Shown here: positions 732-64,000 of the stretch, one piece after another
Layout of the letters: every line of letters starts with the position of its first letter
Numbering within the stretch: the first letter of the stretch is position 1
Source: a virus
Taxonomy: Duplodnaviria; Caudoviricetes
Reading direction: 5' to 3' (one strand)
Virus record (IMG/VR): IMGVR_UViG_2728368993_000001
Coordinates: 50,818-114,817 of that record
Length of the DNA stretch: 64,000 nucleotides
The notes under the pieces: generated by a model
Database searches by the model: none
Told to the model about the DNA's origin: nothing
The model's input: the letters and a program-made list of their open reading frames with translations, nothing else
Position numbers and translations under genes: made by a program

Positions 732-745
732 AGAACATACATTCC
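732..745 (+). promoter_or_regulatory. Degenerate LexA (SOS/Cheo) box
   Basis: AGAATACATATTCC vs CGAACN4GTTCG; same position as the box at 62299. Confidence 0.4.
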
Positions 746-761
746 CCAAAAGGGTTTTAAA

Positions 762-958
762 ATGCAAAAAAAAATATTAAACACGTTAATTTAAATGCTG
801 AGATTGATAGATGCAAAAACAAAGATGAAGAAATGATTAAAATACCAATTTTTAATTCTGTCAGGTACATCAATGGTGAACTAATAGGTGAACTAGACGG
901 GTACTCTGATGTAACAGATGTAGAAATTCATTTTGACAGAAACGAATTCAAGCACTAG
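762..958 (+). pseudogene. Frameshifted homologue of the 64-aa ORF at 62327-62521
   Basis: ATG 762 is out of frame across the A9 run 766-774; downstream frame reads NLNAEIDRCKNKDEEMIKIPIFNSVRYINGEL...EIHF, aligning with NLQEEIKKSKQTGVKLVKVPLLNNFRLVDGKL...PIHF. Confidence 0.7.
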
Positions 959-9867: not shown

Positions 9868-10142
9868 TGCCTTATTTAAGTTTTACTTTTCGTACGTTTA
9901 AAGCAGTCAAACATCATTCATCATAGACAAATGATAAATCGTTTATACCTATTAAACGCACGTAAAGTTATTTTCTCCAGACCGCATACACTAAATTAGT
10001 CTTACCTTTATAAACTACATCACACGTTTGATTTACGACTTTCATAATATTTCTTGGTCTTTCGATTTACGTTTATACATTAAGACTAACATAAATTTTT
10101 GTATATGGACAGACACCAACTTTCACTTTCGGACAGAAGAAA

Positions 10143-10162
10143 TGTGGTCAATTAAGTGGTCA
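10143..10162 (+). other. Integrase arm-type repeats (attL region)
   Basis: TGTGGTCA-ATTA-AGTGGTCA; same motif as 2460-2478. Confidence 0.6.
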
Positions 10163-11152: not shown

Positions 11153-12940
11153 TTATTCTTCTCCTCTTTTTAAAAAGTCAGGATGAAGCATTTCAAGAAA
11201 ATTCAACAGTAATCGCTTTTCAAAAATAATGATGGCTCTACACTGATCCGCTGTTTTAATCGGGATATACTCCTTATGAGCGATTGTATTGCGATAAGTA
11301 ACTATTTTTTCCAATTGCTCTTTTAAAATTCTTTTTTCCCTAGATTGGAAGATGGCAGCATCCTCTTTTAAAATTCCAATCTCTTCAACAATTTCTTTTA
11401 TGGTAATGGAATCACCAAACCATTCCCAGCCATCAAATAATATATGAAGGATAGAACCAAAGGTAAAGAGTCTGATTTTTAAGGAATTTTTGGTCTTAAA
11501 TACCATAGTGTTCGGCCATTTATTAAGTTTAGACTTCCCTATATTAATCTTACAGTATTCTTCGATTGGTTGATGGATTTTGCAATAGAATTCAAATTCA
11601 AGGGCTTTTGTTAAATTAATGACGGCTGGTGAAAAATCAAGGGTTTCTCTGAATGCTTCATGATCCATACTTTTATAAATAAATTCTGATGTAATGATAA
11701 ATTGTTTTGTATCAGGTTCTAAAAATACCCAATAATCCCCAAAGAAATCGAATAGTTCCTTCTCAATTTCTTTAATTTGCTCTTTTGGTATTTTTGTGTG
11801 GAACTTGTTGATGTTTAACACCCAATCTTCAATTCGCTGTATACTTTCTTCTGTTGAACAATCCTCTAATTCCAAGAGTTCTCGGAGTCTTCCTAAATTA
11901 TTAGACAAACGTTTATATTCATTTTGAAGGGCAGTTATTTGAATATAACTCTTTAGAATATTTCTGTATGAAAAATCCTTTACCGGCATGGAGTCCAAGG
12001 CATCATTGGTAATTATACTGAATGGACAGCTGTAACTGTTCAATCTCTCCTTTGATACTTTAATGGCCTCTTCTGAGGAGTCGATTCCAATCCAACGCCT
12101 GCCCATGTTTCCTGCAGCCACTAAAGTACTGCTGGAACCTGAAAAAGGATCCAAGATGACCTCATCAGGATGAGAGCCCATTTTGATAACCCTTTCCATT
12201 AGGGCCAAAGGTAGTTGTCCAGCATAATTAGTTATTTTTTCATGTGGAAGGGTTCTCATGTAAATATCGCCCCAGTCAGAACCAACCTCTTTTTCCTTTT
12301 CGTAATATTTTAAGGATGGGCTTCCTGTACGAGGATGGTAGTAAATGAGTCCTTCTTTATCAAGTTGATTTAGCTTTTCTTCGCTGTACTTCCAATAAAG
12401 TCGCTCCGTAGGTGTTACGCCTTTCCAGGTGAATTTCCGGTTGCCACTTAATTCTAGAGGAGTAAACAAAGTAACGGTAGTAAAGCGACCAACTTTGTCT
12501 TCTAGACGGTATTGTTTTTGTTCCTCTGTTGTAAGTGGCCGGGTAATTTTGTTTAAATTATACTTCCCGGAGTTGCTGTAAATTAATAGAGTTTGATGGT
12601 CAGGACGAAGTGATTTGGTGTTGCCAAAAAACACGTGTTTGAGTTTAATTTCTAACGGCTGTTCCTCCTGCTCAAAAACTTGGTCTAAAATAAATCTAAA
12701 ATTAATAGAGGAGGCTGGAATATGATAAAAGAATACTAGCCCATCTTCTTTTAAGACCCTTCTAATTTGCTGAAAGACTTTGGAATAATATTCTGATATT
12801 ACTTCTAGCAATCCATCCGTTTTACTCATCCAATCTCCTAAATAGGCAGGTGGATCTAAGAACACAAGTGAAGCAACCCTTCCATCCATTCTCTCCAAGA
12901 CTTTTAACGAATCTGCCCAAAACAAAGCGTTTTCATGCAT
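11153..12940 (-). CDS. N6/N4 DNA methyltransferase-like domain (degenerate) fused to a C-terminal HEPN-like domain
   Basis: DPPA (motif IV), DPFSGSS (motif I), GRRWIGID; coiled coil; LDFSPAVINLTKALE and RNTIAH (Rx4H). Confidence 0.8.
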   Translation of the reverse strand: MHENALFWADSLKVLERMDGRVASLVFLDPPAYLGDWMSKTDGLLEVISEYYSKVFQQIRRVLKEDGLVFFYHIPASSINFRFILDQVFEQEEQPLEIKLKHVFFGNTKSLRPDHQTLLIYSNSGKYNLNKITRPLTTEEQKQYRLEDKVGRFTTVTLFTPLELSGNRKFTWKGVTPTERLYWKYSEEKLNQLDKEGLIYYHPRTGSPSLKYYEKEKEVGSDWGDIYMRTLPHEKITNYAGQLPLALMERVIKMGSHPDEVILDPFSGSSSTLVAAGNMGRRWIGIDSSEEAIKVSKERLNSYSCPFSIITNDALDSMPVKDFSYRNILKSYIQITALQNEYKRLSNNLGRLRELLELEDCSTEESIQRIEDWVLNINKFHTKIPKEQIKEIEKELFDFFGDYWVFLEPDTKQFIITSEFIYKSMDHEAFRETLDFSPAVINLTKALEFEFYCKIHQPIEEYCKINIGKSKLNKWPNTMVFKTKNSLKIRLFTFGSILHILFDGWEWFGDSITIKEIVEEIGILKEDAAIFQSREKRILKEQLEKIVTYRNTIAHKEYIPIKTADQCRAIIIFEKRLLLNFLEMLHPDFLKRGEE

Positions 12941-41470: not shown

Positions 41471-42814
41471 TTAGAGACCCAATAATTTCTTATCCATAGA
41501 GCCAAGTTTATTTTTGTTAAATAGAATCGTATTCACAAAATATCGATCACCATCAAGTTGGTGGTCATTTTGTTTAATCGGCTTATCTTCACCGCGATCA
41601 GCAGCCTTTTCATCCCAAATATAAGAAGAAAACTCACGGAAAGTTTCTACGCATCGATCATTGTATTTAATCAGACCATCATTGAGGGCATTACCAACAT
41701 TACGAATTCCATCGATGACCTCATTCTTTGCCTTAATCACTTTAAATCCGTTTTTCTTCAAAAGGGCAATAAAAGAAGCAGCCGATGGATCTACAATCAC
41801 ACCTTTAAGATTTTTTATATCATCTGTAAACGCCTGTAGATCCTCTAAATACTCTTGGTCTGTTTTTTGCTTACTCTTTTGTCGACCATCGTAATGGTAT
41901 TCCTTGTCCTTGTACCAAAGTTCATTGGAAAGACCCCACAATCCAAAGGTTGTCGGGTTCTGCGTACCATAATCAATACTGACATAGCACTTGGAGTATG
42001 GTCTTTCTTGTGTAGTCACGACATGCTTGTCCTTATTAAACATGTCATAAATAACGCCCTCAGCAAGCACCCATAAGCCTAGAATGAACCGCTGATAGAA
42101 GATGCCCTTATACATCCTCTTGTAACGCTCTTTGGTCTTAGCTGTCAGGGAAAGGTTATCATCCATCGTGAAATGGATATGTAGCATGTTCTTATCTTTT
42201 AGTTGGTCCAGATATTCCACCTTGAACCAATGATATGGACCAGCTGGGTTGCAGTTGAACCAAAACTTTGCCCCATCAACAGAACAACGAGCTGTTGCCT
42301 GATTAACAAATGATTGTGGCATCAATGCAACTTCGTCAAAGAACATGCCAGCAAGCGTAATCCCCTGTATAAGATCCTGTGAACCTTCATCCTTACCACC
42401 AAAAATATAAAAGTAATTCGTTTTACCTTTATAGGAGATGGTCAAGAAATTATCTGCTCGATGGTCCTTAACTCTATAACCTCGCGCCTTTAACATTCGC
42501 TTCAATGGAGTAATAACGTTACGTCGAAAAGAACCAATCGTCTTTCCGGCCATACCTAAGTTCACTTCATCGAACGTATCCATTCCCCACATAACGTAGG
42601 ATAGGGACATAACGACTGTTTTCCCAGCACGGACGGAACCATCACAAATAACCCCGTCTTTATCTTTGACAGGGGAACCATTTCGCCACCAGGTTAAAAC
42701 TTGCTTTTGCTTTACTGAGAAAGGTTTAAAGGTAAATGGTGCTGGCTTTTTCTTCTTAGCTGGCTTACTCGTCAGGAAAGCAAACGACTTAGCTTCAATC
42801 TTCGTTTGTGTCAT
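41471..42814 (-). CDS. Terminase large subunit (PBSX family)
   Basis: DGSVRAGKT, FFDEVAL, IDYGTQNP, DHQLD. Confidence 0.96.
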   Translation of the reverse strand: MTQTKIEAKSFAFLTSKPAKKKKPAPFTFKPFSVKQKQVLTWWRNGSPVKDKDGVICDGSVRAGKTVVMSLSYVMWGMDTFDEVNLGMAGKTIGSFRRNVITPLKRMLKARGYRVKDHRADNFLTISYKGKTNYFYIFGGKDEGSQDLIQGITLAGMFFDEVALMPQSFVNQATARCSVDGAKFWFNCNPAGPYHWFKVEYLDQLKDKNMLHIHFTMDDNLSLTAKTKERYKRMYKGIFYQRFILGLWVLAEGVIYDMFNKDKHVVTTQERPYSKCYVSIDYGTQNPTTFGLWGLSNELWYKDKEYHYDGRQKSKQKTDQEYLEDLQAFTDDIKNLKGVIVDPSAASFIALLKKNGFKVIKAKNEVIDGIRNVGNALNDGLIKYNDRCVETFREFSSYIWDEKAADRGEDKPIKQNDHQLDGDRYFVNTILFNKNKLGSMDKKLLGL

Positions 42815-43682
42815 TATTCCACACCTCCGAAGTTGTAGCATCTAAAGCGGCTTCAAAACCATCATCCTCATATTCTTCTTCTTCATTCGCTCCAAAGACT
42901 TTATGATGAGAAATTTTAAGTTTCTCTTCCTCAACTTGACGCTTGAATTTGTCTGGGAACAAGTCGAAGTATAAGGACAATTTATCCAAGGCCTTCATCT
43001 TGTCAGCAAGCTTAACCGATATACCGTCTTTGCCCTTTTTAACTTCTGTAATTAGAGTCCCATCAACTTCATTGGCATTCTTGAAATCAACATAGTTGTA
43101 GCTATACATCACAGGTTCGCCGTTTTCATCTAATATAGGTTCGCCAGTTAATGCATTGACTTCCGGCTGTTCCTTTTGCCCAAAATCAACAAAGTCTGTA
43201 ATGTCAGCAAATGCTATCTTTACCCACTTATTTAGAACGTCTTGAGCATCAATAAACAGATTTCCTGTCATTTCTTTCTTCATTCGCTGAATAAACTCTT
43301 TCACCCTAACATTCCCTAACAGCCTTGGACCTTGCACATGAGCTGTATCTAGAGAATACCCAGCCTTAATTGCTGATTGAGTAGCATTGAATGACTTAAC
43401 GTAATGAAAACAAAAAAGCCTTTGTTTATCAGTAAGTCTATCTGAATCAAGCTCATCTTCTTTTATTATTTCTGGCTCGCTTTGTGGGGATGCATCCTTC
43501 TTTTTTAGGGTTGCAACCTTTTGATTTTTGGTTGCATCCTTTTTCGTTGGATTCCTCGACCAACCTTCACGGCTTTTTCTGCTTTTCAAGGTACCAATTT
43601 TCACATCATGCTTATCAGCAAGAGCCTGCAAAGTAATCTTAGAAGTTTCATATTCATTTCTTATTTCATCCCAATTAGGCAT
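42795..43682 (-). CDS. Terminase small subunit
   Basis: N-terminal HTH, LTDKQRLF, NATQSAIKAGYS, KLADKMKAL. Confidence 0.93.
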   Translation of the reverse strand: MPNWDEIRNEYETSKITLQALADKHDVKIGTLKSRKSREGWSRNPTKKDATKNQKVATLKKKDASPQSEPEIIKEDELDSDRLTDKQRLFCFHYVKSFNATQSAIKAGYSLDTAHVQGPRLLGNVRVKEFIQRMKKEMTGNLFIDAQDVLNKWVKIAFADITDFVDFGQKEQPEVNALTGEPILDENGEPVMYSYNYVDFKNANEVDGTLITEVKKGKDGISVKLADKMKALDKLSLYFDLFPDKFKRQVEEEKLKISHHKVFGANEEEEYEDDGFEAALDATTSEVWNNDTNED

Positions 43683-50784: not shown

Positions 50785-50862
50785 CATTAGGCAAATTTTA
50801 CGAAAGTAAAAGACGCAAAGCCACGGACCTAAGGTTTTTAACTATGGTAGCCGGTTGCCAAG
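50785..50862 (+). ncRNA. c-di-GMP-I (GEMM) riboswitch
   Basis: GGCAAA-TTTTAC-GAAA-GTAAAA-GACGCAAAGCCACGGACCTAAG...ATGGTAGCCGGTTGCC. Confidence 0.9.
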
Positions 50863-54311: not shown

Positions 54312-55253
54312 CTATGGATTTATTTTCTGAAACATCTGGTCCATTTTACGTTTACGATTTTCCAATTCTTTAATGTTAACTGGCTCATTTGACTCAACAG
54401 CTGGATTTTTTTGCAGCCATTCAGGCACAACCTCAATCCTCCCTGAACCCCTTCTATATGGAGTAACCTTGTTCTGTTTCTGAGCCTGTTTCTCTTTAAA
54501 TTCAAGCTGATAGGCTTCGACTTCTGATGTCTTTTTAAAACCTTTGTCAAACCAATCTGTTAAGATGGCTTCAACATATCTCCACGTCTTTTTACCCTGT
54601 TCTGTTGAACGCTTCATGGCCAATACAACTAGTTCATCCGAAAGGTCTGCACACCAGGAGGATATCTTTTCAGTTATATAACTACCTATCACACCAAAAC
54701 CATTCTCTTCATAGAACCGAAATGGATTCTCTTGTGGAACTGGACTTACATCTACAGGTTCATCTATCACAAAGGGTTCTACGTATTCCTGCTCCTCTTC
54801 TTCTACACCTATCTCAGGTTGAGCAATCTCTGGTGGCTCCCAAGAAGTAATAGTAAGGCCATCTATGTGATATCCAAGAGCTATGCAGTTATTGATAAAC
54901 TCGTTTACTAGATCTTTGTTTTTGATACCATCAAGTTCTTTTTTTATACAAGCAATCACTTTCGGACTCTTGATAAAGTTGTACTTTGCCCAATTGACAA
55001 TCATGATTTCCTTCGTCTTACCGTCATAAATGATTTTTCCGTAATCAATGAATCTCTGAAGCAACTTATCTACAGTTTCGCGGTTATATCCCGTCTCTGT
55101 TTCGACGATGCGCTTCGGGAGTTCATAAATGCCGCATTGTGAGGTTTTACTGTTAGTCATTAAATACAAGTAAAAATATTTTTCCTCCGGTGTAAGGTCA
55201 AGAACGAACCCATCCTGCCAAAACTCGATATGCACTTGTCTATATTTCGCCAT
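54312..55253 (-). CDS. Phage replication initiator with DnaD domain
   Basis: FWQD...LTPEEKYFYLYLMTN wHTH; NPFRFYEENGFG...WRYVEAILTDW. Confidence 0.92.
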   Translation of the reverse strand: MAKYRQVHIEFWQDGFVLDLTPEEKYFYLYLMTNSKTSQCGIYELPKRIVETETGYNRETVDKLLQRFIDYGKIIYDGKTKEIMIVNWAKYNFIKSPKVIACIKKELDGIKNKDLVNEFINNCIALGYHIDGLTITSWEPPEIAQPEIGVEEEEQEYVEPFVIDEPVDVSPVPQENPFRFYEENGFGVIGSYITEKISSWCADLSDELVVLAMKRSTEQGKKTWRYVEAILTDWFDKGFKKTSEVEAYQLEFKEKQAQKQNKVTPYRRGSGRIEVVPEWLQKNPAVESNEPVNIKELENRKRKMDQMFQKINP

Positions 55254-62298: not shown

Positions 62299-62312
62299 AG
62301 AACATATATTCT
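62299..62312 (+). promoter_or_regulatory. LexA (SOS) box
   Basis: AGAACATATATTCT just upstream of the GGAGG RBS. Confidence 0.65.
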
Positions 62313-62326
62313 ATATCGGAGGTTTC

Positions 62327-62521
62327 ATGATGAATGCTAAAAACGAAATTGAAAAATTCAATCTACAAGAAGAAATTAAGAAGTCTAAACAAACAGGCGT
62401 GAAGTTGGTGAAAGTCCCTCTGCTCAATAATTTTAGATTAGTAGACGGTAAATTGCAATATGACATCGAAGATTATATCGAGACGCCTATACATTTTTTG
62501 AAAGATGAAAAATTGAATTAA
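62327..62521 (+). CDS. 64-aa hypothetical protein upstream of the integrase
   Basis: RBS; homologue at 762-958. Confidence 0.8.
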   Translation: MMNAKNEIEKFNLQEEIKKSKQTGVKLVKVPLLNNFRLVDGKLQYDIEDYIETPIHFLKDEKLN

Positions 62522-62533
62522 GGAGTCGCGCAT

Positions 62534-62816
62534 GCGCGTATCATCATCATCTATATTCTTATTCTCTTTCTTATTCTCTTTCTTATTCTTAGTTCTTCTT
62601 CTTCCCCCTAGTCTATGGATAGTCTATGCATACCCTATCGATACCGTATAGATATGGTATAAAACCTTTATGTATCAAGGGTTACAGCAATTTCAACAAA
62701 TATGTAAAATCTATCCTATAGATACTGTACTTATACCATATCCGTAGTGTTTCTATAGAGTATGCATACGGTATCTACACCCTATTTATACCGTATGCAA
62801 GGAGTATAGATAGACC
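62534..62816. repeat. Pyrimidine tract plus two 11-bp-phased iteron-like arrays (5 + 9 units)
   Basis: Units from 62608 to 62662 and from 62711 to 62809; consensus ATA-N3-TAT-NN. Confidence 0.88.
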
Positions 62817-62830
62817 TTAAAAATGAAAGG

Positions 62831-64000
62831 TTGTGGAATATATTGGCATACTTCCGGAAAGTGAAAGCAAAAAATAAAAAAGGATATACTTGGGCATTTA
62901 CGATTGAAATTGGGATTGATCCTGAAACAGGAAAAAGAAAACAACTCACACGAAGAGGTTTTGAAACTAAAAAAGATGCAGAGATGGCTTCAGGAAAGAT
63001 TCAACAGGAAATAGAGAATGATGAATTTATTCAACCGAAAAAGGTACTTGTAAAAGATTTTATGGTCGACTGGCTAAATAATATTGCTAAACAAAATGTT
63101 AAGCCTTCTACTTTTGCTGGTTATAAAGGGGTTGTTGCTAAAAGGATCATTCCTATATTCGGGGCTTTAAAACTAGAACAACTAAAACCTATTATGATTA
63201 CAAAATATTATAATTCACTCTTAGAAGAAGGATTATCTGAGGAATATATTGATTATATACATTCTATTCTTAAAACATCCTTAAATACTGCTGTAAAATG
63301 GGAATTCATTAAAACAAATCCTGTTGTAAAAGCTGATAAACCTTCTCTTAAGAAAAAAAGCGTTTCAACATGGAGTATAGAAGAATGTAATGCATTTCTC
63401 TCCAAAGCGAACGAAGACAGCAAACCTCATTTTTATATTTTGTATTTATTAGCAATCTATACTGGAATGAGACGAGGAGAAATATTAGGATTGAAATGGA
63501 GCGATATTATTTTTACCCAAAAGAAAATAAGTATTGCTAGGACTCTATATTATATCCACGATCAAGGTATTATTGAACAATCGACCAAAAACGACGGATC
63601 AACTCGTGTAATTTCTATATCTGATATGGTAATAAACGAACTAAAAAAACATCAATTGTGGCAGAAAGAACGTAAACTAGAATATGGTATCCCCTATTCA
63701 GAAGATGGATATATAACAGCTAATCACAAAGGCGAAGCATTGAATCCAAATTACGTTTATAATCATTTTGTAAAAATGACTAAGAAAGCAGGATTAAAGA
63801 AAATACGCTTCCATGATTTACGTCATACACATGCTACAATTATGCTGCAGCTAGGAGAACATCCGAAAATCGTCTCTGAGAGATTAGGACATTCTTCAAT
63901 CGAAATGACGATGAATACCTATTCTCACGTTACACCAGATATGCAGCAAGATTCTTCTGATCGCTTTGAAGAGGCCTTAAAAAACGCGAAAAATCTATAA
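62831..64000 (+). CDS. Tyrosine integrase (intact; start may be TTG 62843)
   Basis: GMRRGE, RFHDLRHTH, LGHS...TYSH. Confidence 0.97.
   Translation: MWNILAYFRKVKAKNKKGYTWAFTIEIGIDPETGKRKQLTRRGFETKKDAEMASGKIQQEIENDEFIQPKKVLVKDFMVDWLNNIAKQNVKPSTFAGYKGVVAKRIIPIFGALKLEQLKPIMITKYYNSLLEEGLSEEYIDYIHSILKTSLNTAVKWEFIKTNPVVKADKPSLKKKSVSTWSIEECNAFLSKANEDSKPHFYILYLLAIYTGMRRGEILGLKWSDIIFTQKKISIARTLYYIHDQGIIEQSTKNDGSTRVISISDMVINELKKHQLWQKERKLEYGIPYSEDGYITANHKGEALNPNYVYNHFVKMTKKAGLKKIRFHDLRHTHATIMLQLGEHPKIVSERLGHSSIEMTMNTYSHVTPDMQQDSSDRFEEALKNAKNL

Follow-up and report, generated by a model that had tools for sequence, protein, structure and literature searches.

In this work, a DNA stretch of 64,000 nucleotides (called the window) from a virus of the Caudoviricetes was analysed, which corresponds to positions 50,818 to 114,817 of the IMG/VR record IMGVR_UViG_2728368993_000001. 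A prophage of 54 kb (prophage B) extends over roughly 10030-64080, and the end of a decayed sister prophage (locus A) lies at the left of the window. The subject is an array of short phased repeats (iterons) with an adjoining pyrimidine tract, together called the cassette, which stands between a small gene and the integrase gene (int) of prophage B (locus B) and is found again before the integrase gene of locus A (intA). The features of both loci and the gene of the resident replisome organizer (rep) are as follows, in positions of the window and with the strand where one applies.

62300-62311, plus strand: LexA (Cheo) box-like site GAACATATATTC, one mismatch to GAAC-N4-GTTC, just upstream of the ribosome-binding site (RBS) of the small open reading frame (ORF)
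62327-62521, plus strand: small ORF of 64 aa, first gene of the small-ORF/int unit
62527-62538: GC-rich palindrome CGCGCATGCGCG, left edge of the cassette at locus B
62541-62607, minus strand: tract of pyrimidines on the plus and purines on the minus strand, homologous to the middle of rep of Geobacillus virus E2 (GVE2), candidate DNA-unwinding element by analogy with SPP1 oriL and oriR
62608-62662: left iteron block, five 11-bp units (ATA-N3-TAT-N2), located by phased scans and about 80% identical to iterons in 12 outside rep genes
62663-62710: spacer of 48 bp between the iteron blocks, 73% A+T, no counterpart in locus A
62711-62820: right iteron block, ten 11-bp registers, 7 of which match ATA-N3-TAT at 5 or more of the 6 positions
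62843-64000, plus strand: tyrosine integrase of prophage B, with Arm-DNA-bind_4, SAM-like and catalytic domains (Pfam)
54312-55253, minus strand: resident replisome organizer (Rep), with an origin-binding-type N-terminal domain and a DnaD C-terminal domain
733-958, plus strand: LexA-like box (733-744) and small-ORF remnant (761-958, start codon lost) of locus A
1060-1240: cassette of locus A, with the tract at 1060-1130 and ten contiguous 11-bp units at 1131-1240, upstream of the frameshifted intA
1263-2457: intA in two frames, 1263-1634 and 1543-2457, broken around a poly-A run

Locus B thus reads in the order terminator-like hairpin, LexA-like box, 64-aa ORF, GC-rich palindrome, pyrimidine tract, iterons and int. 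Phased ATA-N3-TAT units with 11-bp spacing were confined, in the 64-kb window, to 1131-1238, 62608-62671 and 62711-62807. A scan for three consecutive units (ATA-N3-TAT-N2 with at most two mismatches) gave 17 matches, all of them in loci A and B, compared with 0.02 expected by chance from 100 dinucleotide shuffles; a four-unit scan gave three regions in the window and none in each of 20 shuffles. The phased array before both integrases, which a preliminary description of this DNA had reported, is therefore real and, within the window, specific to the two loci. Units of the right block occur in both orientations, and the block ends 5 bp before the int RBS (GAAAGG, 62825-62830), which is followed by a TTG start codon at 62843. 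The tract of locus B comprises 67 nt with 85% C+T and 70% A+T, the A+T content of the window being 64%. The CGCG-rich edge of the cassette was also observed in locus A and in the integrase leader of a further provirus (L185) described below.

The two loci share the order of box, tract, array and integrase gene, as had been claimed, except that in locus A the start codon of the small ORF is gone and the integrase gene is split. They had also been called near-identical in DNA, which was too strong, since the arrays are 83-88% identical and differ by an insertion or deletion of about 100 bp. The identity of the cassettes ranges from 74 to 92% in windows of 50 columns, versus about 45-55% in the flanking int DNA, and the Int A and Int B proteins are only 31-37% identical, in agreement with the stated divergence of the integrases. 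The loci do belong to two elements; however, these are not unrelated, because locus A is part of a decayed relative of prophage B and holds a rep fragment (residues 194-313, C-terminal) 97.5% identical to the resident Rep.

The origin of phage lambda lies inside gene O, and for temperate Firmicute phages, too, the initiator gene is usually taken to contain the origin. The resident Rep matched PHROG 6251 'replisome organizer' with an E-value of 6e-68 and has a DnaD domain. It was the sole replication initiator detected in the early region, where its neighbours are a YqaJ exonuclease, RecT and a RusA-like resolvase. As had been noted before, the resident rep has no iteron array; it keeps a vestige encoding GYHIDGLTIT, which is followed by an unrelated acidic and proline-containing linker. 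No other iteron-like array was detected in the 54-kb prophage by Tandem Repeats Finder, by a repeat search around rep or by the phased scan. The picture is different in other phages. In BLASTN searches of a phage collection, positions 62571-62660 matched the middle of ORF39 of Geobacillus virus E2, annotated as 'replisome organizer', with 80% identity over 90 nt on the opposite strand, and they also matched the middle of a gene of Bacillus phage PK1, with 72% identity. In the rep gene of E2 the homologous DNA is translated and encodes ...YGIDTVSIDYGEEKEKEKEK...DDDDD. Outside loci with this iteron type came from three sources, namely a short-pattern search, homology to Rep and the phage collection, and in all 12 of them the array stands in frame inside a single rep ORF (the 12 loci represent 11 distinct phages, because L157 is GVE2 again). 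Their iterons have about 80% DNA identity to those of the leader, and the tract is homologous to the coding region of an acidic and lysine-rich linker downstream of the iterons in rep genes. The N-terminal 135 residues of the 12 array-bearing Reps share 75-110 identities (56-81%) with the resident Rep, which indicates that this iteron type travels with this type of N-terminal domain.

The minus-strand translation of the leader array is interrupted by stops and frame changes, and this part of the preliminary description was reproduced. When the gene context of the array was compared in outside loci, as had been recommended there, it was a rep gene each time (12 of 12). The array is confirmed, at the level of sequence homology, as a non-coding derivative of what would be the intragenic origin of a replisome organizer, with the best match in GVE2 ORF39 and similar ones in 11 further rep genes. 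The leader arrays contain more good units (5+7 in B and 10 in A) than the intragenic arrays, which contain 2-6.

The strongest evidence for a function comes from a second provirus with the same module and a different cassette. L185 (L185/G453) is part of an IMG/VR provirus rated 100% complete. Its module consists of a LexA-like box, a homologue of the small ORF at the equivalent position (59% identical), a cassette, and int with the same RBS (93% over 30 nt). The L185 cassette comprises a T-rich tract and five or six 12-bp units (GTCGGAAAGGTT on the int strand) with a TTCCG core, and it matches the middle of the own rep gene of L185 at 86% over 115 nt on the same strand, the main difference between the leader and the intragenic copy being one 12-bp unit. 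The provirus has exactly two copies of this segment, 9.2 kb apart. The L185 Rep is 79% identical to the resident Rep in its DnaD-type C-terminal half, but its N-terminal domain is unrelated and HTH-like (helix-turn-helix). A Rep with the L185-type N-terminus is found in Aeribacillus phage AP45 (47% identical overall), and positions 1440-1680 of the AP45 locus (L197) hold a DnaD-like gene with 12-bp TTCCG-core iterons, then a lysine and acidic linker. The intragenic iterons of AP45 are the counterpart of the L185 leader cassette. There are consequently two iteron families, each travelling with its own initiator N-terminal domain, and the slot in the int leader holds the family of the resident initiator. 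The position of this slot is the same within about 10 bp in B, A and L185, in spite of the different iterons. Because the iteron type of the cassette changes with the cognate rep, it is quite likely that the cassette is a selected Rep-binding site and not debris. The word relic, used in the preliminary description, is right as far as the loss of coding goes, but it undersells a segment whose changes with rep argue for a selected function. In the same way, the array had been described as moved out of rep. The resident rep has indeed lost its copy, but the segment was more probably duplicated first and the internal copy lost afterwards, since L185 keeps both copies. For the same reason the suggested anti-correlation between leader arrays and intragenic iterons does not hold strictly.

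Two further copies of the prophage B-type cassette were found in the genome of the window, both non-coding and 200-290 bp upstream of the rep start, in the following remnants.

C1:820240-821468 (L180): remnant 1, cassette at C1:821395-821468, beside rep and a DnaC-like remnant
C18:59376-59736 (L181): remnant 2, cassette at C18:59376-59468, beside a rep fragment of 17 residues

The spacers between cassette and rep are 80-87% identical between the two remnants. In the C1 remnant only rep and the DnaC-like gene are left, and the neighbours are serpin and LXG-toxin genes. The segment of iterons and tract therefore behaves as a unit in three settings, namely within the rep gene, shortly before it and in the leader of int.

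The cassette of prophage B belongs to a transcription unit with features of SOS control. The consensus of the LexA (Cheo) box is GAAC-N4-GTTC. The LexA-like boxes of B, A and L185 have one mismatch each, the host lexA promoter has the identical one-mismatch variant, and 7 of 8 related loci have a box with at most one mismatch in the 700 bp before int; LexA would presumably bind the box. In L179, L183, L184 and L186, int is preceded by a LexA-like box and an ImmA-type gene or a very short ORF, without the cassette, and integrase units with an SOS box seem to be frequent among these phages. No family was assigned to the small ORF in Pfam, PHROG or NCBIfam, and the ESM Atlas gave no usable lead. 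No terminator-like site was found between the small ORF and int, and promoter-like matches in the leader were not above chance (9 versus 10.5 expected), so no int-specific promoter was recognised there. Since the cassette lies inside the LexA-box unit without an intervening terminator, SOS-induced transcription would cross it. A structured cis-regulatory RNA in the leader was rejected: there was no relevant Rfam match at E ≤ 1, and no fold is common to B and L185 (fold z-scores of -3.1 and +1.05, respectively).

Taken together, the cassette is best read as a portable phage origin, which would consist of Rep-binding iterons and an adjoining A+T-rich, strand-asymmetric tract. Because the resident rep has lost its array and the cassette is the sole iteron array in the prophage, the leader cassette is the most likely candidate for the working origin, and that it is the initiating origin of prophage B has, in our estimate, a little better than an even chance. 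The preliminary description had offered an origin, a Rep-bound switch on int and a decoy as options; of these the origin appears to fit best, a Rep-bound switch may exist besides it, and the decoy found no support.

The closest known system, on the best reading by analogy, is the origin pair of phage SPP1. SPP1 has oriL inside gene 38 and an intergenic oriR; each combines direct repeats with an AT-rich element for unwinding, and gp38 binds to both (PMC6316719). The same account, with a second one, describes a proposal that gp38 on oriR stalls the fork and triggers the switch from theta to concatemer replication together with exonuclease, annealase and resolvase (PMC6316719; PMC3485210). As in SPP1, direct repeats are present here, with a candidate unwinding tract beside them, genes for an exonuclease, a RecT-type annealase and a Holliday-junction resolvase lie close by, and L185 has one copy in the initiator gene and one kilobases away in non-coding DNA. 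Unlike SPP1, the phages here are temperate and the outside copy lies in the leader of an SOS-boxed integrase unit; in prophage B, moreover, the intragenic copy is lost, which leaves only the outside copy, now enlarged to about 15 units. An oriR-type second copy besides an intragenic origin is thus present in L185, with its two copies, and not in prophage B. With the intragenic origins of GVE2 ORF39, PK1 and the AP45 DnaD-like gene the cassettes share the same iterons and linker tract (about 80% DNA identity) and the same N-terminal type in the cognate initiator, but the segment of prophage B lies outside any gene, has stops and frame breaks and contains more units. The C1 and C18 remnants have the same cassette of iterons and purine tract outside coding sequence, though 200-290 bp upstream of rep, while in prophage B a distance of 7.3 kb separates rep from the cassette in the int leader. 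An origin cassette that matches Rep but stands outside rep, in an SOS-boxed int leader, would represent a variant of the SPP1/lambda kind of origin. A literature search at the level of listings and abstracts gave no paper on a copy of the origin before an integrase gene.

Several observations weigh against a working origin in the leader. The module is rare, with three loci found, two of them in one genome. The array DNA had matches at E ≤ 1e-4 in 2 of 67 genomes of the family, namely the own genome of the window (G000) and one weak partial match, and the small ORF was present in 1 of 401 genomes sampled from the order, which again is the genome of the window. Relatives of the integrase (L179, L183, L184, L186 and L188, 36-58% identical) have no leader cassette. 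No DnaA box with at most one mismatch was found in either leader, and the A+T content of the tract (70%) is only modestly over the window average (64%). The cassette persists in the dead prophage A, so persistence alone is no proof of function, and the intragenic array is also kept in L185, so the leader copy need not initiate there. As to the range of the module, the pattern of the right half of the array had no match in viral contigs. The int-RBS pattern and the small-ORF alignment found only the L185 contig among viral contigs and nothing in metagenome contigs, and tblastn with the small ORF gave no match in the phage collection. The survey of species genomes is incomplete because it used a single 15-base pattern, which is too short and hit at least 118 stretches, mostly by chance; among the matches listed, four loci were relevant (L050, L063, L083 and, weakly by name, L067).

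If the cassette does not initiate replication, it could be a Rep-bound site comparable to SPP1 oriR, at which Rep, tightly bound to the array, acts as a fork barrier while initiation takes place elsewhere, and the stalled fork would be processed by exonuclease, RecT and Holliday-junction resolvase into the theta-to-concatemer switch. The SPP1 model, as outlined in the accounts cited, has oriR-bound gp38 stall the fork and trigger this switch (PMC6316719; PMC3485210), L185 has exactly this two-copy layout with 9.2 kb between the copies, and in prophage B the YqaJ exonuclease, RecT and the RusA-like resolvase are encoded next to rep. However, prophage B has no other iteron array at which initiation could occur, and the candidate unwinding tract is retained, which would be superfluous for a barrier alone, so a pure barrier is rather unlikely here. 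Somewhat less probable still is a Rep switch on int, in which bound Rep would occupy about 200 bp as far as the int RBS and either block or, by remodelling, allow read-through from the LexA promoter, so that the supply of integrase is tied to the start of lytic replication; such a switch can coexist with origin function. It would agree with the end of the array only 5 bp before the int RBS, with the lack of a terminator between small ORF and int and the chance level of promoter-like matches, with the constant slot (about 10 bp) in B, A and L185 despite different iterons, and with the LexA-like box upstream of int in 7 of 8 relatives. Relatives nevertheless run the same LexA-box/int unit without a cassette, and an operator does not require an unwinding-type tract.

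That the cassette is a rep fragment trapped by illegitimate recombination and without function now is improbable. It is true that the cassette no longer codes, that it persists in the decayed prophage A and that the module is rare. On the other hand, it is far better conserved than its coding flanks, the units were kept and multiplied despite the lost reading frame, and the slot of L185 holds a different cassette that matches its own rep at 86%, which chance trapping would not predict. It is very improbable that the array is a decoy, by which the initiators of related phages would be titrated upon superinfection. Cloned phage origins are known for such an effect, since lactococcal phage origins on plasmids give 'phage-encoded resistance', and the array of locus A stands without a cognate full-length rep; but that effect depends on multicopy plasmids, while the chromosome carries only one copy here, and the cassette matches the own rep type, not a foreign one. 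Finally, the repeats adjoin int and the integrase has an arm-DNA-binding domain, which might suggest arm-type sites of the integrase as part of attP, the phage attachment (att) site. The chance of this is close to nil, because the array is homologous to rep-internal DNA, and the assignment was contradicted by the core ACATCACACGTTT and the (A)TGTGGTCAA repeats, which are at the prophage ends, downstream of int.

We hypothesize that the cassette of prophage B originated as a copy of the central part of a replisome-organizer gene and now stands, non-coding, between the SOS-controlled small ORF and the int RBS, and that the internal copy of rep was lost after this duplication into the leader. The N-terminal domain of the resident Rep would bind the phased units, and the bound Rep, by analogy with SPP1 oriL and oriR, would open the neighbouring tract. 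The DnaD-type C-terminal domain of Rep may then recruit the helicase-loading machinery of the host. SOS induction would transcribe through the cassette, in the same way as rep transcription crosses an intragenic origin. Gating of int expression and the fork-barrier role could both be added to this origin role, as they are not exclusive.

The remaining features concern the ends and the gene content of the prophages. The far end of prophage B has the following position.

10016-10152: far end of prophage B, with the att core ACATCACACGTTT at 10016-10029 and an Int arm-type repeat ATGTGGTCAA at about 10142-10151

The second copy of the core ACATCACACGTTT (13-14 nt) is at the mutL stop codon just past the window end, where core and two arm repeats lie just beyond position 64000, past the int stop codon. 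The sequence GTGGTCAA had only 5 occurrences in 64.2 kb, each beside an att end. The arm-type repeat (A)TGTGGTCAA is present at both prophage ends, and two copies follow directly after intA (2457-2479), beside glnA. The array of locus B is about 1.3 kb from the att core, with the int gene in between. The lysogeny genes of prophage B are on the plus strand in the order repressor (60413), ImmA-type peptidase (60878), Excalibur-domain protein (61520), small ORF, cassette and int, and the early lytic genes are on the minus strand (among them those of an anti-repressor, the YqaJ exonuclease, RecT, Rep and the RusA-like resolvase). The scan of the early region, which covered 13 ORFs, revealed no phage helicase, loader or primase. 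Left of locus A there are tail genes, the rep fragment, cro-like and cI-like genes, ImmA and a cargo gene. At 376-534 there is a perfect tandem duplication of 76 bp (2.1 copies, 100%), in which the 3' end of an ORF that stops at 453 recurs. ORF 42795-43682, upstream of putative terminase and portal genes, contains 2.7 copies of a 21-bp repeat (43487-43543), which may be a packaging signal. A cargo gene at 11153-12940, close to the far end of prophage B, codes for a DNA methyltransferase that has a HEPN (RiboL-PSP) domain at its C-terminus.

This case presents the predicted origin segment as a movable cassette, able to stand alone outside rep, and the int-leader slot as a place refilled with the cassette that matches whichever initiator a mosaic phage carries. 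Going further, the leader may be a dedicated slot for a swappable origin cassette always matching the initiator of the phage itself, and inside the SOS-controlled int transcript one segment would serve as origin, as a Rep-sensing gate on integrase supply and as a fork barrier. This proposal goes well beyond the single origin role, and we consider it possible but doubtful. If true, such a leader with three jobs would couple induction, the timing of excision and the start of replication, and an origin about 1.3 kb from the attachment site might drive in-situ replication into the mutL/mutS region before excision. Annotation pipelines that seek phage origins only inside rep would overlook an origin of this kind. 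If confirmed, these phages would offer a natural system for the role of a second, SPP1 oriR-like origin copy, and likewise for asking whether the binding of the initiator feeds back on integrase expression.

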